64,000 bases of DNA from Nitrospirales bacterium (GCA_965223295.1 CBDCWC010000003.1:1792001-1856000), one strand, 5' to 3'. Shown: positions 42,483 through 57,914, numbered from the stretch's first letter. Numbers and translations: made by a program. Notes: generated from the sequence alone by a model not told the origin.

Positions 42483-42720
42483 TCAGTGAACTCTCTCCCT
42501 CTATCCTGTCATGGTGAAACGGCAAGAGGATAATTGGTGATAAACATCAAGCTAGCTGACTAGTACGGGCATGGTAGGTGAGGGTTTCTCAGGGTGTCAA
42601 GAAATGTACCTGTGAGTCTTCGTTGACGAAGTTTTGAGTGGCTGATATCGTTTCATACGTCATCCAAAGGTGCCCCAACCTTTTGGGGCACATTCAATTC
42701 AGACTTGTAAGGAGAAACAA

Positions 42721-43578
42721 GTGGCTGCACAAATTATTGATGGAAAAGCCTTGGCACTGACTCTTCGAGAAGGCATTGGCCAGGAGGTCGCGATACTTGA
42801 AAAAAACACTGGAGTGAAACCCGGTTTAGCAGCAGTGTTGGTGGGGGATGATCCTGCCTCAGCGGTCTATGTGAGAAATAAGAAACGAGCTTGCGAAAAA
42901 GCCGGCCTGTACCCGCAAGAGCACATTTTACCCGCATCGACCACACAGGATGAATTGCTGAAACTGATTCATTCGTTGAATGCCGATCCCAAGATTCATG
43001 GCATTTTAGTACAGTTGCCATTGCCGCCACATATCGACAGTAAAGCGATTTTACAAGCCGTCTCTCCGGAAAAGGATGCTGATGGTTTTCATCCAGTGAA
43101 TGTGGGGCGGTTGGTGGAAGGAGATCCGGTCTTTGTTCCCTGCACGCCGAAGGGCGTCATCCATATGATTGATTCCACAGGCGTGGATATTTCCGGAAAG
43201 CGAGCGGTGGTCATTGGTCGTAGTAATATCGTGGGCAAGCCTGTCGCCATGTTGTTGCTACATCGTCATGCGACAGTGACGATTTGCCATTCCCGAACCA
43301 AAGATCTGCCTGGCCGGGTTCGGGAGGCTGATATCGTCATTGCAGCCATTGGCAAACCACACTTTGTCACATCAGATATGGTGAAAGATGGGGCGGTGGT
43401 CATTGATGTGGGTATTAATCGTTTGGCTGATGGTAGGCTTGTGGGAGATGTCGATTTTGATCGCGTGAAAGAACGAACCAGTTGGATCACACCAGTCCCT
43501 GGCGGCGTCGGTCCCATGACGATTGCGATGTTGCTTCAGAACACGCTCGAGTCGGCCAAACAGTTTGTTAAAAAGTAG
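42721..43578 (+). CDS. folD: Bifunctional methylenetetrahydrofolate dehydrogenase/cyclohydrolase
   Basis: [27 protein letters not shown] and [11 protein letters not shown] motifs; AAGGAG RBS before GTG 42721. Confidence 0.98.
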
Positions 43579-43605
43579 TTCGATAGAGAATAGAAAACAA
43601 AACGC

Positions 43606-44403
43606 ATGAGCTATCTCACAATTCCTGAGTTTCAACAGCATAAAAAAGACGGTAAAAAAATCACGGTGGTGACGGCTTATGATGCCTTGTTTACAAGCAT
43701 CATCGAGCAAGCTGGGTTGGAAGTCATTTTGGTTGGGGATTCTCTAGGGATGGTCGTCCAGGGAAAGCCGAATACAATATCCGTTACGATGGAGGATATG
43801 CTGTACCATACTCGAATGGTCGCAGGGGCAGCTCAACGAGCCTTGGTGATTGGAGACATGCCGTTTTTGTCCTATCAAGTGAATGTCGAGGAAGCCGTGC
43901 GAAATGCCGGACGCTTTCTTCAAGCCGGTGCGGTGGCGGTTAAACTGGAGGGAGGGTTGCCAGTCGTGGACCGTGTTGAAGCCATGACACGTTTTGGTAT
44001 TCCAGTCATGGGCCATGTCGGCATGACGCCACAGTCAGTCAATCAATCTGGGGGATACAAGGTTCAAGGAAAAGCGCAGGCTGCTGCCGATCAGATTATG
44101 CGAGAAGCCAAAGCCCTTGAAGAAGCCGGGGCTTTCGCGGTGGTGCTGGAATGTGTGCCGAGTTCATTGGCTCAAACGATCTCACAGGAACTCACGATTC
44201 CTACTATCGGTATTGGTGCTGGAGCAGGCTGTGATGGCCAAGTGCTTGTGCTCTATGATTTGTTAGGATTGTTTGACGATTTCGTCCCAAAGTTTGTGAA
44301 ACCTTATGCTCGTTTAAAAGCAGAAGCTCTGCAAGCCCTTTCGCGCTATAAGGAGGAAGTGGAATGTGGCAAGTTTCCTTCTGACGCAGAAAGCTACCAT
44401 TAA
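43606..44403 (+). CDS. panB: 3-methyl-2-oxobutanoate hydroxymethyltransferase
   Basis: TAYD, LVGDSLGM, DMPFLSY, VKLEGG and PTIGIGAG motifs. Confidence 0.98.
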   Translation: MSYLTIPEFQQHKKDGKKITVVTAYDALFTSIIEQAGLEVILVGDSLGMVVQGKPNTISVTMEDMLYHTRMVAGAAQRALVIGDMPFLSYQVNVEEAVRNAGRFLQAGAVAVKLEGGLPVVDRVEAMTRFGIPVMGHVGMTPQSVNQSGGYKVQGKAQAAADQIMREAKALEEAGAFAVVLECVPSSLAQTISQELTIPTIGIGAGAGCDGQVLVLYDLLGLFDDFVPKFVKPYARLKAEALQALSRYKEEVECGKFPSDAESYH

Positions 44404-44554: not shown

Positions 44555-45376
44555 TCATAGTTTTTCCAGAATCTCCTGTCGTTTTTGTTGATATTCTTCC
44601 TCGCTTAGCAAATCGTCCTGTCGAAGTTCCTTTAGTCTTTGAAGCCGTGCCTTCGTGGACCGGTCAAGGGATTGGGACGAACCGGAGGTCCGCGCTTGTG
44701 GCTCAGGTGCAGTCCCATGCGTCGAGGAAAATAGGTTGAGAGGAAACACAAAATGAGGTGTTTGTGGCGACCACAGTTCAGTGGCCAGGCTATAGGTGAC
44801 TTGTTGGGCAGGCTTCATAGCCTTCAACGAATGCAGGGGTTGGCCTAATGGGAGTAACGGATTTTCTCTGATGTGTTGTGGAGGATGTTGTCCCGTGACA
44901 GTCTGACGGAAATTAGGAAGTACAAGATGTAGACGATGATCTTGAAGGTAGAGACCTCCCGATGTGAGTTCCCAAATGCCATTTCCCCGAGAGGTTGCCC
45001 AATAAAACGTGACGGTTTCCAGAGGTGTGGCTCGAGTCAGTGCCTGCGAAAGATGGTGCGAAAAAAAATCTCGTTGTTCTTCTGAGAAAGCCGTTTGGGT
45101 TGTTGAAGATCCTCCCACCATGCGGTCAAGCAGGGATGAGGGTTGCACTTCAACATGTTGCAATACTTGGTCGAGTGTCTCTGGGGGCACATGCGCAGGG
45201 TGCGAGTATTCAGGAGAGCCATTGCGATAAGTGACTTCCATGCCCACGGTTTTGTCGGGTTGCTCAACAAGAGATCGCATGGTTGAAGGATGTGATGAAC
45301 AATTGGTCGTCAACAATCCAATCGCAAGCCCTAGACCTACTAGTTGGGCTTTTAAAAATACGTGAGAAATTTCCAT
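44555..45376 (-). CDS. Putative lipoprotein with C-terminal SHOCT domain (start uncertain; ORF extends to 45487)
   Basis: Hydrophobic stretch ending LLTTNC; C-terminal RLQRLKELRQDDLLSEEEYQQKRQEILEKL. Confidence 0.78.
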   Translation of the reverse strand: MEISHVFLKAQLVGLGLAIGLLTTNCSSHPSTMRSLVEQPDKTVGMEVTYRNGSPEYSHPAHVPPETLDQVLQHVEVQPSSLLDRMVGGSSTTQTAFSEEQRDFFSHHLSQALTRATPLETVTFYWATSRGNGIWELTSGGLYLQDHRLHLVLPNFRQTVTGQHPPQHIRENPLLPLGQPLHSLKAMKPAQQVTYSLATELWSPQTPHFVFPLNLFSSTHGTAPEPQARTSGSSQSLDRSTKARLQRLKELRQDDLLSEEEYQQKRQEILEKL

Positions 45377-45535
45377 TGAATGACTTTTCCCAAGAAGAAA
45401 AATGATGACATAAGACCAAAAGAATGTAACATGTATTAAAGAAAAGAGATAGAAAACTCTCTCCCTTGTGAAGAATTTCATATTCATTTCGCAAAGTTTT
45501 TCTGTGCTTGCTCACCGTTCAAGAAGTATCGGCCT

Positions 45536-46912
45536 ATGATCTATGAACTGATATTCCTTCGTCCTAAATTAAATACAATTTTGACGTTAGGGTTTGTCTT
45601 GTTTGTCTCCGCATTGCCAGGATGGATCCCGGATGCAGAAGCCATTCCAGCTTTTGCTAGGAAATACAAGGTCAATTGTCATGTGTGTCATACGCGACAG
45701 CCTCGGCTGAATCTCTTTGGAGAACAATTTCTGGAAAATGGCTACCAAATGCCCGGCACGGAGGATGGAGGTATTGTTGGTAAATTGAAGTACGGGGATC
45801 TGACATTGGAGCAGGTTTCCAATTATTTAGGGGTCCTCTTTGCGACAAGTGGTGTTGATCATGTTGAGCTTAAACGAGATGTCCCAGGATCAGGGGATCA
45901 AACAGAGTTAGGCACTCCTGCGATCATGAGAATGTTTACCGCTGGAACTGTCACCGACAACGTGGGGTTTTTTGTAGACATGACGACAATATTTGGTCGG
46001 TCTAGTGAGCTGGAACTGGGTCGGGCCTTTGTTACCTTCAATAATCTTGGTGGTATGAATTGGGGACATCTTCGTGTGGGGCGGCTGGATCCTTCGGCTT
46101 TTTTTTCTATGGCAAGGGGACGCCCACATTTTGTTCCGATCGGTCCCAAGCTGGCCCCACCGTTTGGTGCCTTTAACACGCCCACGGTCAATCGATGGTC
46201 GTTGACGCAGAGTGCCTATGCTTCGAAGTTTTATGGGTTGTTTGATCGTAGTCGAACCGCTATACAACCCTATGACTCAACCTTGTATAACTCGCCGGAA
46301 GAAGTAGGCATTGATATCCATGGACGACCATTTGGTGACTGGTTCCTCTACCAAGTAGGTATCTTAAATGGCGGAAATGAACGGGCAGGGGACTCCAATA
46401 ATTCCAAAGATTGGTATGTCATGGCCCGGTTTGATTACGCCCGATCGAATTATTTCTCTGCCAATCTTTCAGGGTTTGCCTATTTTGGCAATCATAACGC
46501 CAAGGTAGCTACCAATGCCGATGTCAGCCGGAGTCGCTATGGTGTGGGGGCACGCATGCGTTACAAATGGCTGGATGTCTATGGGGCTTATACCATTGAT
46601 CGAGTCACGGATTTGCCCAGTGGCATGGAAGCGAGTTTTGACTCGACAGCTACGGGGGTAACGGTGGAGGCTCATGCCATTGTGACCGATCGTCTGATGT
46701 TAGGGGTCAGGTATGACCATATGGATGCTGGAGGTCTCTTAGCGGAAAGGAAAAGTGCCACGTTTGCGGGCATACAAGTGAGATACTTTTTGCGATCAAA
46801 TATCTCATTGAATCTCCGAGACGATTTTAATGTTCGCGATTCGGAGGGGGGCAGTAGCGCTGCTCGGAATCTTCGGAATCGCTTATCAGTAGGCGTGGCA
46901 ATTGTCTTTTAA
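45536..46912 (+). CDS. cyc2: Cyc2-like fused monohaem cytochrome c-porin, paralog A
   Basis: Signal peptide, then AIPAFARKY-x3-CHVCH-x3-PRL..FGEQFLENGY, a beta-strand-rich body and a terminal Phe (GVAIVF). Confidence 0.82.
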   Translation: MIYELIFLRPKLNTILTLGFVLFVSALPGWIPDAEAIPAFARKYKVNCHVCHTRQPRLNLFGEQFLENGYQMPGTEDGGIVGKLKYGDLTLEQVSNYLGVLFATSGVDHVELKRDVPGSGDQTELGTPAIMRMFTAGTVTDNVGFFVDMTTIFGRSSELELGRAFVTFNNLGGMNWGHLRVGRLDPSAFFSMARGRPHFVPIGPKLAPPFGAFNTPTVNRWSLTQSAYASKFYGLFDRSRTAIQPYDSTLYNSPEEVGIDIHGRPFGDWFLYQVGILNGGNERAGDSNNSKDWYVMARFDYARSNYFSANLSGFAYFGNHNAKVATNADVSRSRYGVGARMRYKWLDVYGAYTIDRVTDLPSGMEASFDSTATGVTVEAHAIVTDRLMLGVRYDHMDAGGLLAERKSATFAGIQVRYFLRSNISLNLRDDFNVRDSEGGSSAARNLRNRLSVGVAIVF

Positions 46913-46921
46913 AAGGAGAAG

Positions 46922-47689
46922 ATGCCGATGCAAATCTCCATAAAATACTTTTGGTGGACAATAGTCTTGATTCTTCTGGTGTTTCAACCTGTTTTCGTGG
47001 CTGCCGGGACTACTAGGATGAACGATATCCAGAAAGGTCAGATTGTCTATGAACGGTCTTGCTTGGTTTGCCATGGAGCCAAGGGTCTTGGAGATGGCCC
47101 TGCGGCCTTTTACAATGCAGCCTTTTCAGCATCACGACCTAGAGATTTGACTGTGGGCAACTATAAGTTTCGCTCGACTGGTTCGGGGAGCCTTCCGCTT
47201 GATCAAGATTTGTTTCGTACGGTTACCAATGGTATTCCTGGCACAATGCCCTCGTTTAGTGGATTATCTGCAGAACAGCGTTGGCAGGTCGTAGCCTATA
47301 TCAAAACATTCTATGCTGGCTTTCAGGAGGAGATGCCTGAATTGGCGAGCATTCCCGAGTTTCCTATTGCACCTTCCGCCGATAGTGTGCAACGTGGGAA
47401 GGCTTTGTATCTGGAGATGGATTGTCATAGCTGTCACGGGGAGCAAGGTCAGGGAGATGTGGTCTTGGCAGGAGAGCTGAAGGATAGTACGAGATTACCC
47501 ATCGCACCGAATGATTTGACGAATCGTACAGGCTGGAAAAATGGGTCGACGGCGCGTGATGTGGTCAGAACGCTCTTTACGGGGTTTGATGGGACTCCTA
47601 TGCCGTCCTACGCGAGTCAATTTGTTGGTCAGGAGGAAGATGCCTGGCATTTAGCTAACTATGTGCTCTCACTTTCCCAATCTCATTAA
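46922..47689 (+). CDS. Dihaem cytochrome c, paralog A
   Basis: Signal peptide; CLVCH and CHSCH; candidate distal Met ligands in GIPGTMPSF and GTPMPSY; AAGGAG RBS. Confidence 0.92.
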   Translation: MPMQISIKYFWWTIVLILLVFQPVFVAAGTTRMNDIQKGQIVYERSCLVCHGAKGLGDGPAAFYNAAFSASRPRDLTVGNYKFRSTGSGSLPLDQDLFRTVTNGIPGTMPSFSGLSAEQRWQVVAYIKTFYAGFQEEMPELASIPEFPIAPSADSVQRGKALYLEMDCHSCHGEQGQGDVVLAGELKDSTRLPIAPNDLTNRTGWKNGSTARDVVRTLFTGFDGTPMPSYASQFVGQEEDAWHLANYVLSLSQSH

Positions 47690-47700
47690 CGGGTAGACTT

Positions 47701-48513
47701 ATGTACCAATGCCTCGTGAGACCTATTAATCCCAATCTAGGGAAATCGCTATATTCCTCTCAGAATTTGAAATCAAACTATTGTCGTTATTGGGCTGTTT
47801 TGCCCAAAACTGTCTTCCTCTGGGCTTCAATAGTCTTCGTTCTGGCTAATGGAATTGGTCTGGGTGAATTTTTGGGGCTATCGGCTTATGCAGGCACCGT
47901 GGAGGGCACTATTTATTACCAAGGTGTTATCCCTAAACCACGATTGAGGGCTGTGATCAAAGATCAAGAGTATTGTGGGGTGGGGGTCAGCATACAGACT
48001 GTCCATGTTCATGACGCCCAGGGAGCGTTAAGCGGGGCTGTTGTGAGTGTCGAAGGGATGAAAAGAGAAGAATATAGGAAAGACGGAACGAAGGATCGTA
48101 AGGTCATCAACATGCACTGTGCCTTTTCTCCTCGAATTGGCGTCGCTCGGCTAGGTCAGGATATTGAGGTACGCAATCAAGATCCTATCCTCCATAATAC
48201 ACATATTAGACTTGGTAAGCGCACTATTCTTAATGTGGCGCAAGTCCCTGGAGGGAAGCCGATTGTGAAGCGGTTAAAGCGATCCGGGCTGCACTCAGTT
48301 CGGTGTGATAAACACATATTTATGGAATCCTCTCTGTATGTCTTCAACCATCCCTTTTATGATCTGACCGACAAAGCTGGAGCATTCCGGATTTCCGGTA
48401 TTCCACCGGGAAAGCATCCCATCCAGGTGTGGCACGAAACTCTCGGCATTCTGGAGAAAGTGGTGCGCGTTCCCAAAGAAGATACCGTCCGTATTGATTT
48501 TGCCTACCCGTAA
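47701..48513 (+). CDS. Exported cupredoxin-like / carboxypeptidase-regulatory-like domain protein, paralog A (start uncertain)
   Basis: NQDPILHNTH and CDKHIFM, then TDKAGAFRISGIPPG..VWHETLG. Confidence 0.78.
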   Translation: MYQCLVRPINPNLGKSLYSSQNLKSNYCRYWAVLPKTVFLWASIVFVLANGIGLGEFLGLSAYAGTVEGTIYYQGVIPKPRLRAVIKDQEYCGVGVSIQTVHVHDAQGALSGAVVSVEGMKREEYRKDGTKDRKVINMHCAFSPRIGVARLGQDIEVRNQDPILHNTHIRLGKRTILNVAQVPGGKPIVKRLKRSGLHSVRCDKHIFMESSLYVFNHPFYDLTDKAGAFRISGIPPGKHPIQVWHETLGILEKVVRVPKEDTVRIDFAYP

Positions 48514-48681
48514 TTTCTTTTTATCCTATATTGAGATTCTTTAGTATCGCTTCCTAAAAACCGAAAATCTTATTGGACGTGTAGGTCCAACTCTATTCTT
48601 GGGCGCTCTGATGACGAGTGCGCCCTGTGCTAAGAAGGGACTCAATTGAGATGATGAGTAGATTGATCACTGGATATTGCG

Positions 48682-51600
48682 ATGCCTAAGGGTCAAACTC
48701 TCAACCATTCTTTGCTAGGCTGGTTTCGTCGGAAATGGCAGGGGAGTGTAGTCTTCCGTATTTCAACCAGTTTGACCCTTTGCATTGGGTTACTGGTGTT
48801 TGTAGGAGCCATGTTGATTGGCTATAGCCAACGTCAATTACTGGAACAATTGTTTCGGGAACGAGGTCTTGCCGTCGCCAGAACCTTTTCCACTCTTGGT
48901 TCCGGGGCCATTCTGAACCATTTATTCCGTATCCAAGAAGCAATGCCTGCATATGCCAAAGATGGCCATCTCGAAATATTGGAAGTCCTTGATGAAGATC
49001 GTATGGTGATTGCTTCGATGGAGCCCGCCAGGATTGGGGAAATCATCGAAGATCCGCGACTCATAGAAGCTCAGGAATTGGCCAGGGAAGTTGAGGGGTT
49101 TGTGGATAGTCCCGATGGCAGTTCCATGTATATGGTGATTGAGCCGTTGTTTGATCAAAACGAAATTCTGGCATGGGTCCGTGTCGGATTTTCAATGGAA
49201 CGGGTACAGGAAAAAGAACATGAGCTATGGTTTGGCCTAGTACTCATGGCAAGTCTTTTTATTGGGTTGGCGATTGTGGGGGTTCGGCAAGGATTGAATC
49301 AAATCCTTCCTATGTTACAGGGGATGATCAAAAAGCTTCAGGATGTGGCCAAGATGACTGATGCTGGGATGCTTCAAGGAACTGAAAATGTTCACGATGC
49401 ATCTCTTCTTGGTCTCAGAAATAATGAGATGAAAGGAGAAGTTGAGCAATTAGCTAGTGTGGCGACTCAGACCGCAGATTTATTGGAAGATCGCACAAAA
49501 ACTCTTCAAGGATTAATGCTGGCTCAAGAGGAGAAAAATCGAGAATTGACTCGATTAGCTTCGTTCCCTGAGCTGAATCCGAATCCAGTCATCGAATTAA
49601 ATCTTCAGTACCAGGTTACCTATATTAATCCATCAGGTACACGGCTACTCCCTGACTTAGTTGCCGTGGGCTTGGCCCACCCACTTTTTAAAAGTTTCAA
49701 AGATTCATTGGACTATGTGGTCCATGCTGGGTCTGTCAGTGTGGTGCAAGAATCCTCGGTGGGTGAACGAGTCTTTGAAACCCAAATCACGTTCTTAGAA
49801 TCCAGTCAAGTGATCCGTGTGTATTTTCATGAAGTGACCCAAAGAAAAATTGCTGAGCAAAAAGTTCACAAGGTGGCCCGGGAGTTAGAACTGAATAATC
49901 AGGAGTTAGCTCAATCTCGTGATGTGGCGTTAGAGGCTGCCAAAGCGAAGTCAAATTTTTTGGCGATGATGAGTCATGAAATTCGAACGCCCATGAACGG
50001 AGTGATTGGCATGACCGGTCTCTTGCTAGATACAGAATTAGATGAAGTTCAGCGCAAGATGACGGAGACTGTGAGAGGGTCGGGTGAAGCCTTGCTGACG
50101 ATCATCAATGATATCTTAGATTTCTCGAAGATGGAGGCTGGTAAATTTGAATTAGAGGATATTCCCTTTGATCTTCAGTCCTGTGTTGAGGAAGTGTTGG
50201 ACCTGCTTGCTGAACGAGCGAATGAAAAAAATCTCGAACTAACTAGTTGTATTTTCCAAAAGGTTCCACCCATCTTACGGGGTGACCCCGGACGTTTCCG
50301 GCAAATCCTCATGAATCTGGTAGGTAATGCCATTAAATTTACGGAGGTAGGGGAAGTCTCCGTTCAAGTCTTTCCCGAAAAACAAAGTGAACAAGAAATA
50401 ATATTACAGATACAGGTGTCTGATACCGGAATCGGGCTCACTTCTGAACAGCAAGCCAAACTCTTTCAACCATTTACCCAGGCTGATGGCTCCACCACAC
50501 GAAAATTTGGAGGGACAGGCCTAGGGTTGGCTATCTCGAAACAGTTGGCGGAAGCCATGAATGGCTCTATTGCCGTCACCAGTCAACCTGGTGACGGGAG
50601 TTGCTTTTCCGTGAGATTGCCGTTCCAGCTAGCTCAGCATGTTCATGAAGGTACTGATGAATCTCCTGTGTTGCAGGGCCTCAAAATCTGTTGTGTTGAT
50701 GATAACCAGACCAATCGAATGGTGCTTCACTATTATACGCAGGCTTGGGGTATGGATGGTGTATTCGCGGAGGATGGCAGAAAAGCCTTGTTGTTACTGC
50801 GAGAATGTCATGATCAGGGGAAGCCCTGTGACATCGCTGTTCTAGATCTCAATATGCCGAACATGGATGGTTTGGAGCTTGCACAGACCATTAAAGCTGA
50901 TCCTGCCCTTCAAGACCTGAAACTTGTGCTACTCTCATCAAGTGGCCTTCGAGGAGACAACGCGCGCGCGCAGAAAGTTGGGTTTGAGTCGTATCTCAGT
51001 AAACCTGTCCGAAAAGGGGACCTGAAGTCTTGTTTAGAGATGATCATGACCCCTTCGAATACATCTGTTGTCGACAGTTTCCATTCGGTGAAAAAACAGG
51101 AAAACGATGCGCTCTCGGCTCCTTGTATTTCTGGGTTACTGTTGGTGGTTGACGATCATGTGGTCAATCAACAACTAGCGCAAATGATGTTAGAACGGTT
51201 AGGGCATCGTGTTGATGTGGTTGGGAATGGCCTGGAAGCGCTCGAAGCCTTAAGGCAGATTCCATATGATCTGGTCCTTATGGATTGTCAAATGCCAGAA
51301 ATGGATGGATATGAAGCTACACGATTGATCAGAAGGGCAGAAAGTGAAATGTTAGAAGTAAAAGGTCAGGAGGCAGGAGCAAAGAGTGGGAGGCCAGATA
51401 AGAACGGTTCTGAAACTCCTGACTCCTTGCCCTTTTCCCCTCACTCCCGCCGCATTCCGATTGTGGCTATGACCGCCAATGCCATGAAGGGGGATCGGGA
51501 GAAATGTATCGATGCGGGTATGGACGATTATATTAGCAAACCTATCAAACCCCAAGACCTGGAAGACATTCTCGCGAAATGGTTGTCGGTGAAGGAGCAT

Positions 51601-52083
51601 CCTGAGCTGACGACCGATCAAGAGACGATCACCCCTGGTTTTCAAGAAGATGTTCACGCAACGTCCGAGCCCGTTTCTCCGTCCGAGGCGAGTTCAACGG
51701 TTTTTGACCAGGGGACCTCCTCGGAGCCTGTGCTCTCGCCTCAAATGGTGGCTGATTGGCGGATGGCTGGAGGGAGTGATTTTGTCGCGAAACTCGTAAA
51801 TCAATTTGTTTCAGATGCCGTGGCATGTGTAGACGATATTGGCGTTGCGTTAGATTTCCAAAATGCCAATGATGTACGCGAAGCGGCTCATGGGTTAAAA
51901 GGGATGGCAGCTAATATGGGACTGCCGGAGTTAGCGACTATGGCGCATCAATTAGAATCTCTTGGGCGCGAGCAGAATCTTTGCAATGGCACTGATCTGT
52001 TTGCTTCCGTACAACAGGAATTCTCGCGTATTCAGGCCGGGCTGCAGCTTATGCTGGAACAAGAGCACTCCCGTAGAGAGTGA
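48682..52083 (+). CDS. Membrane-bound hybrid sensor histidine kinase (2 TM, PAS-like, HisKA, HATPase, 2 REC, Hpt)
   Basis: [38 protein letters not shown]; receivers DLNMP and DCQMP; Hpt AAHGLKG. Confidence 0.95.
51337..51450. repeat. Heptamer-periodic palindrome embedded in frame in the kinase's second receiver domain
   Basis: GCAGAAA GTGAAAT GTTAGAA GTAAAAG GTCAGGA GGCAGGA GCAAAGA ... TCCTGAC TCCTTGC CCTTTTC CCCTCAC. Confidence 0.7.
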
Positions 52084-52166
52084 AAAGTGAGAAGTAAAAA
52101 AAGTATTTTGTTTAGTCTCTTGCTTTTTACGTTTACCTTCTCACTTTTTTCTCCTTACGCTTCACG
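52080..52166. repeat. Heptamer-periodic imperfect palindrome between convergent genes
   Basis: GTGAAAA GTGAGAA GTAAAAA ... TTTTTAC GTTTACC TTCTCAC TTTTTTC TCCTTAC GCTTCAC. Confidence 0.8.
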
Positions 52167-52171
52167 AATCT

Positions 52172-52903
52172 TCACGGGGCTGGAAAGTCAATATTCAGAA
52201 TAGCGTTGTTTGGTTGCGGAATGGTGACTTTTTGCCGCACCGTGCCTAAGGTTTCGTGCCAAAGCGAGAGGGTATATGTTCCAAATGAGAGGTTCGGAAT
52301 AGTAAAGTGTCCGTAACTATCGGTCACGGTGTGGTAGGGATGGGGGAACACATGAATGATACCGTTCATGAAAGGATGTTTATTACATGTGACTGTCATA
52401 GGACCTGGCTCTCTCAAGACCTTCTGAACACCTTTTGCCTGAGGAAGTAACACGACATTGATAAATGCACGAGTTTTGGTGCGAACATGGGTGTTATGCA
52501 AGATGTTATCGAGATTTTCGATGGCCAATTTTTGTTTTACGGTTGCCGTGACTGCGTGCTTTAAGAATTGACATCCCTTGTTGACAATCGTTTTTGTAGG
52601 TTCTGGCTCCTCGTTGGAGCTATCCTGTCCTTCAATTTCCACACTCACAATGACGTCCTGTAACCCTTTATCCTCAGCAAGGACAACGGATTCCAACTCA
52701 CGGGTCTTTCCACAGACCTCGATATCTTTTTTAATGATAACTTCTTCCATGGGCGGAAGAGGTCCGAGGTAGACGACTTTCCCTTGCAGAGAGGTGGTTT
52801 GGGCGTTGCCGATCTGAGCAACATTAAAGATTCCAGTAAACCAGAGCACAGTAAAGAAGAGGGTTCGTTGAATTTGCCGATGACTGGGACGGTGGTTTGT
52901 CAT
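52172..52903 (-). CDS. Exported cupredoxin-like / carboxypeptidase-regulatory-like domain protein, paralog B
   Basis: Signal peptide; NLDNILHNTH, CNKHPFM and TDSYGHF..LWHETLG; homologous to 47701-48513. Confidence 0.8.
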   Translation of the reverse strand: MTNHRPSHRQIQRTLFFTVLWFTGIFNVAQIGNAQTTSLQGKVVYLGPLPPMEEVIIKKDIEVCGKTRELESVVLAEDKGLQDVIVSVEIEGQDSSNEEPEPTKTIVNKGCQFLKHAVTATVKQKLAIENLDNILHNTHVRTKTRAFINVVLLPQAKGVQKVLREPGPMTVTCNKHPFMNGIIHVFPHPYHTVTDSYGHFTIPNLSFGTYTLSLWHETLGTVRQKVTIPQPNNAILNIDFPAP

Positions 52904-52958
52904 GTTGCTAAGACTCTATTCGGAGAGTATATTCAGGAACAGGTTGTCGATCCACTAT

Positions 52959-53142
52959 GGGTCTGTTGAAAAAAGCCGCCAACTGCGTTCTCGCCATTTT
53001 GCCGTGCTCACGTATTGCCAGTACGCTCCGCGCGGCAAAATGGCTGTGGCCTTGCTGGACGGACTTTTTTGAGCCGACCCGACGCTTCTGACCGTCCAAG
53101 CCTTCCTAATGAAATATGACCTTTGATATCTTCATTACTCCC
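52959..53142 (+). mobile_element. MITE copy 4 (184 bp; 7-nt deletion in the right terminal repeat)
   Basis: Starts GGGTCTGTTGAAAAAA and ends CATTACTCCC (lacks TTCAACA relative to copy 3); 5-bp direct repeat ACTAT at 52954-52958 and 53143-53147. Confidence 0.9.
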
Positions 53143-53219
53143 ACTATCGGTTCTTTTGTTGTAGCCCAAATGAGAATGTGGCGCCAGGTGATTGTGTACA
53201 CGGAGCCTCTCCGTCTCTC

Positions 53220-54011
53220 CTATTGTGGTGATAATGATAAGAGATAATTGACGAGGTGCCAAATATCTTCAGGATTGGGGGAGAGAGCCTCCTGATAGGA
53301 GGCCATAGGGGTGCCATCCAGGCCGGTGAGTATGCTTATTGCGATGTCTCGCGGTTGCTGTCCGTTTTTGAATGAAGAAGGGTTGTGTAAGTCACGGGGA
53401 AGGATATCTAAATTACGGCGGTCCCGTAATTTGCCTTGTTCATAGAGTCCTCCGGGCATCGTGGCCTCAGGGCCATGGCACTTGGCGCAATCTAATAGTT
53501 CATACAACTCATGACCCCGGGTAATGCTGTGAGCTGTTGCCGGCAATGGGCCAGATGCTAGCGCAATAGGTGTTCGTTCTATTTCTTCGAAAAGTGGCGA
53601 GAACTGTTTGATATAGTTAACAAGGTCCCATCGTTGGTTTTCAGAAAAGCTTCGAAATGATGGCATGTAGCCAGGGATGCCGTTAGTAATCGTCTGAAAA
53701 AGATCATAATCGGTTGGCGGTTCCCCAGAAGGGGTGGAGCGGAACTTATATTCTCCACCAACGAATTCTCGAGGACGTGGTGCGGAATAGGCTCCTAAAT
53801 AAAAGGCGTCCGGCCCGTCGCCTACTCCAGTTTTCCCATGACAGAGCAAACAAGATTGTTCATACAGGCGCTTACCTCTTGCGAGGGAATCTGAAGGATT
53901 GCTTTGAGGCTTAGCAGCAAATAAAGGGGTGAGGCCTACAGTGGACCACAACATCACCCCCAGCAGGGGGGCAACAATTCTCTGCTGGTACGACTGGCTA
54001 AAACACCACAT
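53220..54011 (-). CDS. Dihaem cytochrome c, paralog B
   Basis: CLLCH and CAKCH; YKFRST, GIPGYMPSF and GTPMASY. Likely start MWCF at 54011, overlapping the end of the upstream gene. Confidence 0.9.
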   Translation of the reverse strand: MWCFSQSYQQRIVAPLLGVMLWSTVGLTPLFAAKPQSNPSDSLARGKRLYEQSCLLCHGKTGVGDGPDAFYLGAYSAPRPREFVGGEYKFRSTPSGEPPTDYDLFQTITNGIPGYMPSFRSFSENQRWDLVNYIKQFSPLFEEIERTPIALASGPLPATAHSITRGHELYELLDCAKCHGPEATMPGGLYEQGKLRDRRNLDILPRDLHNPSSFKNGQQPRDIAISILTGLDGTPMASYQEALSPNPEDIWHLVNYLLSLSPQ

Positions 54012-55374
54012 CTGCGCCGACAAAAAAGCCATTACGAAAATTCCTTGCTGAGGAACGGCCCCCTTGGGCCTTTCGAAGATTGAAATCATCACGCAGAAAA
54101 AGCGCGATATTGGATCGAATGTAATATTTGGCAATCAGGGCCAATAACGAGTGGCTGGTTCGTTGGCTTCGCAGGCCGCCAGCATCCAGATGATCGTATC
54201 GGAGGCCGACCAGAATTCGATCAGTTGCCAACACGTTGGCTTCGAGCGTGACTCCCGTGGCTGAGTTATCGATTTGGCTGTCTGCAGATTTAGGAAGGCC
54301 CGTCAATCGGTCTACGACGAAGGCTCCATAGACATCCACCATATGGTAACGGATATTTGCCAAGAACCCATATTGGCTCCAGTTCGCATTGGCTGCGGAA
54401 GCCACCTTGGCGTTGTTACGGCCAAAATAGGCAAAGCCAGAAAAATTGACCGAAAAATACTCAGACTGCGCAAAATCAAAACGGGTGAGGACATACCAGT
54501 CTTTGGATTTATTAGAATCGCCAAAGGATTCGTTGGCACCATTGAGAATACCGACTTGATATAAAAACCAATCACCAAAGGGACGGCCATGGAGGTCAAG
54601 ACCCATTTCAGCCACGGCATGAAATAAGGATGGAGCCGTGGGCAAGATGGTGGTTCCTCTTCGATCAAATAGGCCGTAAAATTTATTAGCAAAAGCTGCG
54701 GGCGCGAGGCCGATACGGTTAATCGTGGGATCCATGAATGATCCGTTATCCTCCGAATTGTCTCCCACCAGTTCAAAGTGTTGCCGAAGTGTGGCATAAG
54801 ACGAATATGCGGAAGGATCAAGTTTCCCGACCCGGAGGTGTGCCCAATCATGTTGCCCGAAATTATTGAACGTCAGGAAGGCGCGTTCAATCCCAGTTTC
54901 ATCTTCTTCAAGATTAGATTCTAGCTCAACAAAAAAACCGACATTATTGGTGACGGTTCCGGCGGTAAACATGCTGAAGACCTCCGGAAAACCCAGCTCA
55001 GTCCGGTCTTGTGGGTTGCCGGCGATATTTGACCCGGCAGCCTTGCGGGAATACTCAAAATTTCTGAGAACATTGCCACGGAGTCGAAAGCCCAGGTAAT
55101 TGGTGACATCATCCAGTGTGAGGTCGCCCAGTAGTGATTTTTTAATCGAGTCGCCGTCTTCGGTGCCTGGCAGTTGATAGCCATTTTCCAAAAACCGTTC
55201 GCCGGTCCGGTTTAACCGCGGAACACGGGTATGACAAACTGTGCAGTTCACGTCATACTTTCTGGCGAAGGCCGGGATGGCTTGGGCATCTGGGGGAATA
55301 ACCAGTGAATCGAAGAGAGTGAAGGATGTAAGAAGGAGCATGACAGGAGTTGTGACGGAAAAAATTCGTTTCAT
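53998..55374 (-). CDS. cyc2: Cyc2-like fused monohaem cytochrome c-porin, paralog B
   Basis: Signal peptide, AIPAFARKY-x3-CTVCH-x3-PRL..GERFLENGY, a beta-barrel-like body and a terminal Phe (GADVVF). Confidence 0.82.
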   Translation of the reverse strand: MKRIFSVTTPVMLLLTSFTLFDSLVIPPDAQAIPAFARKYDVNCTVCHTRVPRLNRTGERFLENGYQLPGTEDGDSIKKSLLGDLTLDDVTNYLGFRLRGNVLRNFEYSRKAAGSNIAGNPQDRTELGFPEVFSMFTAGTVTNNVGFFVELESNLEEDETGIERAFLTFNNFGQHDWAHLRVGKLDPSAYSSYATLRQHFELVGDNSEDNGSFMDPTINRIGLAPAAFANKFYGLFDRRGTTILPTAPSLFHAVAEMGLDLHGRPFGDWFLYQVGILNGANESFGDSNKSKDWYVLTRFDFAQSEYFSVNFSGFAYFGRNNAKVASAANANWSQYGFLANIRYHMVDVYGAFVVDRLTGLPKSADSQIDNSATGVTLEANVLATDRILVGLRYDHLDAGGLRSQRTSHSLLALIAKYYIRSNIALFLRDDFNLRKAQGGRSSARNFRNGFFVGADVVF

Positions 55375-55696: not shown

Positions 55697-56779
55697 ATGG
55701 ATATGCCAGACAATATCCAAGGGTGCCGGGAAGAGATTGATCGGCTTGATGATGAAATTCTCAAGCTGTTGAATGAACGTTCCCAATATGTGATTCAAGT
55801 CGGCAAATTGAAAAAGAAACAGGACGCGGCTGCCCATTTGCATACCCAAGGTCGGGAAGCCGCCCTGGTCAAGCGATTGATGGAGAACAACCCTGGACCG
55901 TTTCCCAGTGAAGCCCTCCGTCCCGTCTATCGCGAAATCATGTCTGCTTCGTTGTCCCTAGAAGGCACTCAAACAATTGCCTATCTTGGTCCGCCTGCCA
56001 CATTTACCCATTTAGCGGCCATGCGGAAATTTGGCGAATCGGCTGAGTATCTTCCTGTGACGAGTATTAAGGATGTGTTTGATGATGTTGAGCGGGGACG
56101 CGTGCGGTTTGGCGTCGTACCCATTGAGAATTCGACCGAAGGTGTGGTCAATCATACATTAGACTTGTTTGTTGATTCGCCGTTGCTCATTTATGGCGAA
56201 GTGATGATGGAAATTTCTCACCATTTTTTATCCAAAGCGCAGAATATTGAGGACATCAAAACAATCTATTCCCACCCACATGCCATTGCCCAATGTCGAA
56301 ACTGGTTAGAAACCCATGTGCCGTCGGTGTCTATTGCTGAAGAGCCAAGTACGGCCAAGGCTGCAGAGCGATGCGTCAGCGATCCAACGGCGGCAGCTAT
56401 TGCCTCAGAGTTAGCGGCGCAACTTTATGGATTAACGATCTTGCGCTCTCGCATTGAAGATAACACGAATAATTTTACGAGATTTCTGATATTGTCTTTA
56501 CGTGGGGCCGAACGGACAGGGAAAGATAAGACCTCTTTTATTGTCTCGGCCAAAGACAAGGTTGGGGCGCTCTATGATCTGATCCGTCCCTTCTCATCGC
56601 ATGGCATCAACATGACGAAAATTGAATCGCGACCCACTCGACGGAAAGTCTGGGAATACTTGTTTTTCATGGACTTAGAAGGTCATCAAGATGATGACCG
56701 CGTCAAGAAAGCCCTAGACGAAGTGAAAACACGCTCTTTGTTTTTGAAAGTGTTAGGATCCTATCCCATTCACCAGTAG
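55697..56779 (+). CDS. pheA: Chorismate mutase/prephenate dehydratase
   Basis: REEIDRLDDEILKLLNER, YLGPPATFT, PIENSTEG, NFTRF and KIESRP motifs. Confidence 0.97.
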   Translation: MDMPDNIQGCREEIDRLDDEILKLLNERSQYVIQVGKLKKKQDAAAHLHTQGREAALVKRLMENNPGPFPSEALRPVYREIMSASLSLEGTQTIAYLGPPATFTHLAAMRKFGESAEYLPVTSIKDVFDDVERGRVRFGVVPIENSTEGVVNHTLDLFVDSPLLIYGEVMMEISHHFLSKAQNIEDIKTIYSHPHAIAQCRNWLETHVPSVSIAEEPSTAKAAERCVSDPTAAAIASELAAQLYGLTILRSRIEDNTNNFTRFLILSLRGAERTGKDKTSFIVSAKDKVGALYDLIRPFSSHGINMTKIESRPTRRKVWEYLFFMDLEGHQDDDRVKKALDEVKTRSLFLKVLGSYPIHQ

Positions 56780-56819
56780 TCTCGGTCCACAAACGTTCAG
56801 CATATCCGGATTGTTTGAT

Positions 56820-57914
56820 ATGGCCTTACATGTTCATCCGACGATTGCTTCGTTGAACCCCTATTCTCCAGGGAAACCCCTTTCTGAATTGGAACGGGAA
56901 CTCGGGATTTCTGAAGCCATTAAATTGGCGTCTAACGAAAATCCGTGGGGGCCGTCTCCGAAGGCCCGGCAAGTTCTTGAGCAGGCGTCGGCGTCACTGC
57001 ATCGATACCCTGATGGCGGAGCGCATGCGTTACGGGAAGCATTAGCCAAGAAATGGCAGATGCCTCAGGATCAAATTCTTGTGGGCAATGGATCGGATGA
57101 AGTCATCAGCCTGCTGATCAAAACGTTCCTTGCCCCTGGCGATGAAGCGGTCATGGCGGATTTGACCTTTGTCATGTATCGCCTGTCCGTACTAGGCGGG
57201 TATGGGGTGCCGGTTGAAGTGCCCTTGAACAATTGGACCCATGATTTGCCAGCCATGGTGGGGGCAATCACTGACCGCACCCGTCTGTTCTTTATTTGTA
57301 ATCCGAATAATCCGACGGGCACGATGCTATCCGCGAAAGAGATCGACTTAGCGCTGGCTAAGATTCCCGAAAATGTGGTGGTCGTGTTTGATGAGGCCTA
57401 TTACGAGTATGTTCGAGATGCAGAATATCCAGATAGTTTGGGCTATGTTCGAGATGGACGACCGGTGGTCGTGCTGCGGACGTTTTCGAAGATCTATGGC
57501 CTGGCAGGTTTGCGCGTGGGCTATGGAATCACGACATCAGAGATTGCCAGCTATGTGAATCGCGTGCGCCCTCCTTTCAATGTCAATAGTTTGGCACAGG
57601 AAGCGGCTCAAGCGGCTTTGTTGGATGACGAGCATGTAGCGAAGAGTCGTGCTATGAATGAAGCGGAAATGATCTTTCTGGAAGAAGGGTTAACCAAGAT
57701 GGGGTTCACGACTATTCCCACTCAAGCTAATTTTATATATTTTGATGTTGGGATGGATGGTGCCGTTCTCTATGATGCGCTGCTTCGGGAAGGGGTGATT
57801 GTGCGTCATATTCGTGGGTCGATGATCCGGGTTACAGTTGGTCAGCCTACGGAAAATCGGCGGCTTCTAGAGGCACTTGAGCATGTGTTATCAACCCTGT
57901 CAAAAACCGCGTGA
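56820..57914 (+). CDS. hisC: Histidinol-phosphate aminotransferase
   Basis: KLASNENP, GNGSDE, NPNNPTG, DEAY and RTFSKIYGLAGLRVGY motifs. Confidence 0.96.
   Translation: MALHVHPTIASLNPYSPGKPLSELERELGISEAIKLASNENPWGPSPKARQVLEQASASLHRYPDGGAHALREALAKKWQMPQDQILVGNGSDEVISLLIKTFLAPGDEAVMADLTFVMYRLSVLGGYGVPVEVPLNNWTHDLPAMVGAITDRTRLFFICNPNNPTGTMLSAKEIDLALAKIPENVVVVFDEAYYEYVRDAEYPDSLGYVRDGRPVVVLRTFSKIYGLAGLRVGYGITTSEIASYVNRVRPPFNVNSLAQEAAQAALLDDEHVAKSRAMNEAEMIFLEEGLTKMGFTTIPTQANFIYFDVGMDGAVLYDALLREGVIVRHIRGSMIRVTVGQPTENRRLLEALEHVLSTLSKTA

Follow-up and report, generated by a model that had tools for sequence, protein, structure and literature searches.

A Cyc2-family porin, dihaem cytochrome and cupredoxin gene block around a hybrid sensor kinase: a candidate electron-uptake branch in a Nitrospirales bacterium

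A 64,000-nucleotide stretch of a Nitrospirales genome (GCA_965223295.1, CBDCWC010000003.1:1792001-1856000; hereafter the window) contains a block in which two three-gene cassettes face each other across a hybrid sensor histidine kinase. Each cassette encodes an outer-membrane monohaem porin of the Cyc2 family (A, A'), a periplasmic dihaem cytochrome c (B, B') and a cupredoxin (C, C'), as indicated by sequence motifs, Pfam matches, structure models, Foldseek and VIA-align. We lean, though not strongly, towards the view that this block encodes a regulated Cyc2-type electron-uptake branch, the substrate of which would be Fe(II) or Mn(II). The layout had been put forward in an original prediction made by a model from the DNA sequence alone, and all seven open reading frames (ORFs) were located where that prediction had placed them (Table 1).

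The assignment of the porins rests on a published definition. Cyc2 proteins have been described as having a signal peptide, one CxxCH, an AxPxFAR[Q/K][T/Y] motif upstream and PxL downstream of it, a length of at least 365 amino acids (aa) and a 16-strand porin (Keffer 2021, in the part of that work covered here). Both A and A' display AIPAFARKY-x3-CxxCH-x3-PRL around a single N-terminal CxxCH (residue 48 in A, where it reads CHVCH; residue 44 in A', where it reads CTVCH), are 458 aa long and end in a C-terminal Phe. The AlphaFold2 (AF2) model, made for A (predicted local distance difference test, pLDDT, 87.7; predicted template modelling score, pTM, 0.84), shows the 16 long strands of such a barrel, with a long loop at residues 185-255 and a hydrophobic N-terminal helix at residues 12-29. 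Foldseek matched this model to 16-strand general porins (E about 1e-11, prob 1.00), and the A-family profile matches OmpU (E 1e-3). Neither Pfam nor NCBIfam has a family model for A or A', and a PDB search with the single sequence of A or C gave no useful match. A cluster look-up of 10 distant A relatives yielded no informative names, and an atlas search returned only 'Cytochrome C family protein' and one cluster with Porin_O_P in 20% of its members. An exhaustive search put the family at 1,714 cluster representatives for E <=1e-3, of which 25 remain at E <=1e-30.

Homology to the cytochrome 572 (Cyt572) type is also detectable. Leptospirillum-type genomes were marked by the NCBIfam cytochrome 579 model, which scores above cut-off in 28/401 Nitrospirota genomes, all from one family. 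When the A-family profile was run on five such genomes, it matched ORFs of 550-567 aa bearing this same motif in three (E 6e-29 to 9e-19), only a 135-aa frame on a contig in the fourth, and nothing in the fifth. In a pairwise alignment, A is 25% identical to one Cyt572-type ORF over 172 aa (E 7e-12). The motifs and this homology indicate, at the level of sequence, that A and A' are Cyc2-family members with a distant relationship to the Cyt572 type, whose protein is longer by about 100 aa. Hence the outer-membrane monohaem porin of the original prediction stands, but not its idea of an analogue from a different protein family, given that the motifs, the length and, for A, the modelled barrel agree with the published Cyc2 definition. 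With the Cyc2 proteins of Acidithiobacillus ferrooxidans and Mariprofundus PV-1 and with Leptospirillum Cyt572 they have in common the CxxCH, the flanking motifs, the length and, in the model of A, the 16-strand porin; unlike these characterised proteins, they occupy a Nitrospirales-specific clade. According to the parts of the published work covered, in vitro Fe(II) oxidation has been shown for Cyc2 proteins of three clusters, and cluster 3 is the one that includes Nitrospira Cyc2; the cluster 3 label used here for A and A' follows that placement and not a score against a hidden Markov model. Fe(II) oxidation by A and A' is accordingly a prediction from family membership. The Cyc2 of Candidatus Manganitrophus, a Nitrospirota lithotroph for which a role in Mn(II) oxidation has been proposed, is a homologue placed in cluster 3 alongside the Nitrospira sequences, from which it stands apart in the published trees covered.

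C carries the motifs HNTH and CDKHIFM, and C' the motifs HNTH and CNKHPFM together with a partial CarboxypepD_reg match in Pfam. For the AF2 model of C (pLDDT 86.2), the top Foldseek matches were amicyanin, plastocyanin, pseudoazurin and CuA domains (prob 1.00). VIA-align recovered two separate folds, carboxypeptidase D domain II (Z 11.7 over residues 62-270) and cupredoxins (Z 9.4-10.7 over about 128-216), plastocyanin and amicyanin among them (Z 9.4-10.5 over 130-216). This points to a cupredoxin (about 128-216) inserted into a transthyretin/carboxypeptidase-regulatory-like sandwich (about 62-90 plus 217-270). All 49 family members compared and 9/9 paralogues in this genome (C, C' and seven encoded elsewhere) have His165, Cys202, His205 and Met208; two extra Cys, the second His of HNTH and a WHE motif are also invariant in the family. 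With a cupredoxin fold and a His/Cys/His/Met set of which the last three lie in one C-terminal loop, C is a candidate type 1 copper protein, copper binding being predicted from the model. It has the fold and the His...Cys-x2-His-x2-Met pattern in common with amicyanin and plastocyanin, and differs from both in the second sandwich that surrounds its cupredoxin and in the extra invariant residues. The Cx2Hx2M loop spacing is that of amicyanin. An alignment search for the C family had no match in 5 Leptospirillum-type genomes. A co-fold of A, haem and C scored 0.00 in a run without controls, and carries no weight on binding either way. The sandwich around the cupredoxin of C also superposes on chain Y (86 aa) of 6HIF, the Kuenenia hydrazine dehydrogenase (Z 11.0, root-mean-square deviation 1.9, 79 residues), a likeness that hints at a cytochrome docking module and may equally reflect a common fold.

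B matches Pfam Cytochrome_CBB3 and Cytochrom_C in two stretches each, with CxxCH at residues 47 and 168, and thus has the two domains, each with its own CxxCH, of class I dihaem c-type cytochromes (c4 or CcoP-like). B' likewise has two CxxCH and Pfam cytochrome c domains; its orthologues in relatives are 254-304 aa long and, because the long B' ORF overlaps A', one of the two alternative starts in Table 1 is probable. The closest solved relative of B is PDB 6h5l_B, which matches residues 37-253 (E 2.2e-44) and preserves the two haem motifs as well as the two Met-Pro regions. The Met-Pro motifs suggest His/Met ligation in the cytochrome domains of B. 6H5L is a Kuenenia HAO-type structure, the chain B of which we take to be Kustc0457, the dihaem partner in the HAO-like complex of Kuenenia stuttgartiensis. 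The partner there is an octahaem enzyme of anammox bacteria, whereas the neighbour of B is a Cyc2 porin. The structure of Cyc1 was not among the PDB matches of B at E <=0.01.

The two cassettes were compared gene by gene, and A and A' are 55% identical over 451 aa (E 1e-175), B and B' 46% (E 6e-76), and C and C' 31% (E 2e-40). The cassettes are, on these alignments, old paralogues and not a chance resemblance, in agreement with the pairing originally described. Gaps of 9 and 11 nt between the genes of cassette 1 fit an operon arrangement. Across the order, 58 of 151 sampled genomes had a match to A, many of these being weak N-terminal matches to other Cyc2-like ORFs, and 20 loci were fetched from 17 Nitrospirales genomes. 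In these, the genes follow the order A-B-C on one strand in 25/25 intact cassettes, a synteny which, together with the C-centred scan described below, bears out the three genes as conserved neighbours. The convergent double cassette around a kinase, between the SHOCT gene/panB and pheA, recurs in five congeners. Decay of the second cassette is seen in G128 (L037), where C' is kept, A' is a 143-aa stump and B' is gone, and at L059, where fragments of A' and B' are left and C' is absent. G084 and G126 have one cassette at the panB/pheA site and another elsewhere. Variant cassettes are a tandem A-A-B-C in G134 (L042) and an A-B-C-C in G113 (L044).

In a tree of the A family (64 rows, quick method, SH-aLRT support only), all Nitrospirales A-B-C cassettes fall into one clade (support 94). 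A and A', the only two family members in this genome (3.78 Mb, three contigs, 100% complete), belong to separate subclades (supports 95 and 99), and the second cassette of G046 and G148 forms a third lineage. Either the duplication predates the genus, or the site was filled repeatedly. Among 16 congeners sampled, nine have strong A matches, one has weak matches only and six have none, and the block is accessory within the genus. In 5/5 congeners without the A family, panB and pheA lie 1.4-4.3 kb apart with none of the block genes between them; the proximity of the two genes in non-carriers marks the block as a presence/absence island at a conserved site. The empty site and the flanking genes also substantiate the earlier description of the block as lying between panB and pheA. 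Compositionally foreign DNA was considered and dropped as its nature because the GC content of the block (0.45-0.50) equals that of the flanks. A scan for promoters and terminators did not rise above shuffled controls (12 against 14.5 expected; 15 against 11.6 expected).

Table 1 Features of the block and its flanks (window coordinates).
Feature	Assignment	Position	Strand	Length (aa)
folD-panB	flanking genes	42670-44403		
SHOCT gene	SHOCT-domain protein, hydrophobic N-terminus	44555-45487	-	310
A	Cyc2-family cytochrome-porin	45536-46912	+	458
B	dihaem class I cytochrome c	46922-47689	+	255
C	cupredoxin in beta-sandwich, candidate type 1 copper protein	47701-48513	+	
Kinase	hybrid sensor histidine kinase	48682-52083	+	1133
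C'	second cupredoxin/beta-sandwich protein	52172-52903	-	243
B'	second dihaem cytochrome c	ORF 53220-54134, likelier start 54011 or 53954	-	
A'	second Cyc2-family cytochrome-porin	53998-55374	-	458
pheA-hisC	flanking genes	55697-57914		

The association of the three genes extends beyond the phylum. An alignment of C was used to scan 185,579 species genomes, and the best 80 of 181 confirmed stretches were kept, corresponding to 79 loci. Within 3 kb of C, both A and B are present in 34 of these loci, A only in 8 and B only in 6. In 10/10 Acidobacteriota loci the order is C-A-B, the genes immediately downstream are COX1 (PF00115) and a FixO-plus-dihaem fusion, and a P-type ATPase lies on the upstream side; in four Pseudomonadota loci, C and/or B adjoin COX1. 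In these FixO-dihaem oxidase subunits, the dihaem part shares 37-43% identity with B (37% for locus L125). The linkage is kept while the order is shuffled, which indicates a common function for the trio, and its position beside a cbb3-type oxidase in other phyla provides the best indirect support for the trio feeding a terminal oxidase. The same triad of outer-membrane monohaem porin, dihaem cytochrome c and cupredoxin occurs in one locus in the rus operon of A. ferrooxidans. The gene order there is cyc2-cyc1-coxBACD-rus, and the acidobacterial trio likewise precedes a haem-copper oxidase. The systems differ in that rusticyanin is a single-domain protein whereas the cupredoxin of C lies inside a second beta-sandwich, in that the oxidase linked to the trio is of the cbb3 type and is not found in this genome, and in the hybrid kinase and SHOCT protein added here.

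The neighbourhood in other phyla bears on two further explanations. As a protective or housekeeping measure, the proteins might act on Fe(II) or a different metal at the surface of the cell, its oxidation serving detoxification or being coupled to uptake, with little gain of energy. This would suit the accessory distribution of the block (strong A in 9/16 congeners, site empty in the 5/5 non-carriers examined) and the P-type ATPase near the acidobacterial clusters. It would also suit the occurrence of the ferrous-uptake cupredoxins EfeO and FtrB among the structural neighbours of C (Z 10.4 and 9.7), where they are tied with many other cupredoxins. However, the metal-binding domain of the ATPase is of a type that we take to be typical of oxidase-maturation copper pumps, the direct neighbour of the trio in other phyla is a respiratory oxidase, and no permease, siderophore or ferritin gene was found among the ORFs and Pfam matches of the block. 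We regard such metal handling as quite unlikely. Under oxygen shortage, electrons might alternatively leave the periplasm for extracellular Fe(III) or Mn(IV), as a monohaem porin could in principle run in either direction and the metabolism of Nitrospirales is flexible. The carriers, however, are of high-potential types, B with Met-Pro motifs that suggest His/Met ligation and C with the ligands of a type 1 copper site; in other phyla the trio adjoins an O2-reducing oxidase, and no multihaem outer-surface cytochrome was found within the block. Outward flow thus appears highly improbable.

For the electron-uptake branch that we favour, we infer an inward transfer between the proteins by the following steps. 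A and A' would be exported, receive one haem c and form a 16-strand barrel in the outer membrane, with the cytochrome domain at its periplasmic mouth. The haem would be reduced by a small dissolved reductant, most likely Fe(II) and possibly Mn(II), and the electron would then pass to the co-operonic periplasmic carriers, the blue-copper-type C and the dihaem B. These would deliver it to a terminal oxidase. In this organism a cytochrome bd-like oxidase (six subunit I frames of 575-684 aa) is the predicted acceptor, because no haem-copper oxidase was found in the genome. The hybrid kinase would control the system through its periplasmic sensor domain, either by regulating genes or by reading the state of C.

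Several observations weigh against this interpretation. The haem-copper oxidase model PF00115 has 0 matches in this 100% complete genome, so the oxidase link of other phyla is not directly transferable. The published authors, in the parts of their work covered, hold the function of cluster 3 least certain and do not find Nitrospira Cyc2 assignable to iron or manganese. C is not exclusive to Cyc2, as it has seven further paralogues elsewhere in this genome, and in some phyla it lies beside octahaem cytochromes. Neither A nor B is present within 3 kb in 31/79 C loci, a class that includes short contigs and an orphan-C subfamily. Finally, C is linked most closely in Nitrospirota to the kinase and not to A, so that a sensing role fits C as well as a carrier role does.

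The kinase comprises an N-terminal, membrane-flanked Cache-like sensor followed by HisKA, HATPase_c, receiver and Hpt domains. These last all exceed their Pfam cut-offs, as expected of a hybrid kinase, while sCache_3_2 scores 28.2 bits against a cut-off of 28.4. Because it does not reach the equivalog cut-offs of NCBIfam models such as BarA and TorS, it can be called a generic hybrid kinase only. Homologues of its N-terminal 230 aa occur in kinases beside a C gene at 20/20 order-level loci. In the C-centred scan, which was blind to the kinase, such a kinase lies <=1 kb from C in 39/52 Nitrospirota loci and farther away in 5; the remaining 8/52 loci lack it and all span 8.9 kb or less. Outside Nitrospirota it was found at 0/25 C loci. 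Orphan C genes, those with neither A nor B nearby, still divergently adjoin such a kinase, and in the window C and C' both abut it directly. The kinase had been correctly placed between the cassettes in the original prediction, but a bystander it is not, its sensor domain being tied to the C gene across Nitrospirota. The one other kinase of this sensor type in the genome is located beside a decayed C remnant. This remnant (contig C2, about 1605477-1605777) lies next to the kinase at C2:1605780-1608368, which is 80% identical to the L071 kinase, and aligns only with residues 1-74 and 205-233 of a relative's 234-aa protein, the cupredoxin part being gone.

It is conceivable that kinase and C form the core of a sensing module, with C as a periplasmic copper or redox reporter, A and B providing the outside signal, and regulation rather than energy as the output. 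We would liken this to the binding proteins TorT and LuxP, whose genes neighbour those of the hybrid kinases TorS and LuxQ. The frequent adjacency of the two genes, the short span of the kinase-less loci, the orphan C genes, the position of both the C and the C' gene right beside that of the kinase and the remnant beside its only counterpart in this genome all agree with such a module. So does the second cassette of G128, which lost B' and most of A' and retains C'. A kinase that merely regulates C predicts the adjacency equally, however, and the second cassette at L059 decayed without retaining C'. Furthermore, none of the 25 C loci outside Nitrospirota has the kinase, yet the trio persists there beside an oxidase. 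Sensing as the sole output is, in our assessment, unlikely. A joint reading would combine three proposals: the block is a regulated metal-oxidising respiratory branch through which otherwise nitrite-oxidising Nitrospirales gain energy from Fe(II) or Mn(II), the new cupredoxin-in-sandwich family is the dedicated partner of cluster-3-type Cyc2 in several phyla, and the periplasmic domain of the Nitrospirota kinase reads the redox state of C and so senses electron flux from outside. Taken as a whole, this combination seems doubtful.

The gene upstream of A, divergent from it, is a further member of the block and a recurrent companion that the original prediction had overlooked. Its lipoprotein-like product has a SHOCT match at the C-terminus (E 1e-5, under the curated Pfam cut-off). 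Homologues (29 hits overall) lie divergently upstream of A in cassette-bearing congeners, and in another Nitrospira clade the gene stands between A and C, in the order A-SHOCT-C-kinase and with no B. It was not found in the five congeners without the block.

In water treatment and in the ocean, the principal nitrite oxidisers are Nitrospira. They have been described as more abundant in rapid sand filters than the nitrite supply can account for, and the question of iron or manganese oxidation by their Cyc2 homologues has been raised, in the published parts covered. Cyc2 cluster 3 homologues in Nitrospira have already been published, with a function there called uncertain. The locus described here extends an isolated marker gene to a defined candidate pathway of porin-cytochrome, two carriers, a lipoprotein-like companion and its own sensor kinase, and the trio adds a cross-phylum link to a terminal oxidase. 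If the proposed electron uptake is correct, the oxidation of metals would be facultative and would differ among close relatives. The nine-member copper-protein family of this genome may, in addition, be relevant to electron transfer in the periplasm of Nitrospirales at large. In the literature covered, the supplementary tables of which lie outside that coverage and may hold relevant entries, we found no description of the A-B-C(-SHOCT)-kinase module, of the cupredoxin-in-sandwich family and its kinase pairing, or of the trio joined to cbb3 oxidase operons in Acidobacteriota.

The host resembles a nitrite-oxidising member of Nitrospirales, the order that had been surmised from the sequence: its relatives are Nitrospirales-named, and two NxrA-like frames of 1146 and 1150 aa match narG weakly, as the Nitrospira type would. 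Three C paralogues are encoded in a second region of the genome (contig C2:1747977-1770386; L131, L132), together with a 662-aa fusion of a B-like dihaem part and EB_dh, two bd-like subunit I frames, DUF420, a thioredoxin-like DsbH and HEAT-repeat proteins. Its gene content suggests a locus for periplasmic electron transfer or for the maturation of oxidases. At five loci from other organisms (L112 5816-8128, L115, L117, L123 and L109), a C-family gene lies next to a cytochrome of 766-904 aa with eight CxxCH and no Cyc2-like porin is present. These are metagenome-assembled genomes labelled Rickettsiales, proteobacterium and Gemmatimonadota, L117 being unclassified, and the L112 octahaem protein has cytochrome c7/c554/MtrC-like Pfam matches plus two class I domains. 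Homologues of cytochrome 579 (NF033864) that score under the cut-off occur in all sampled genomes of two large Nitrospirales families (39/39 and 76/76), and the present genome has 3 such matches, the best with E 2.4e-34.

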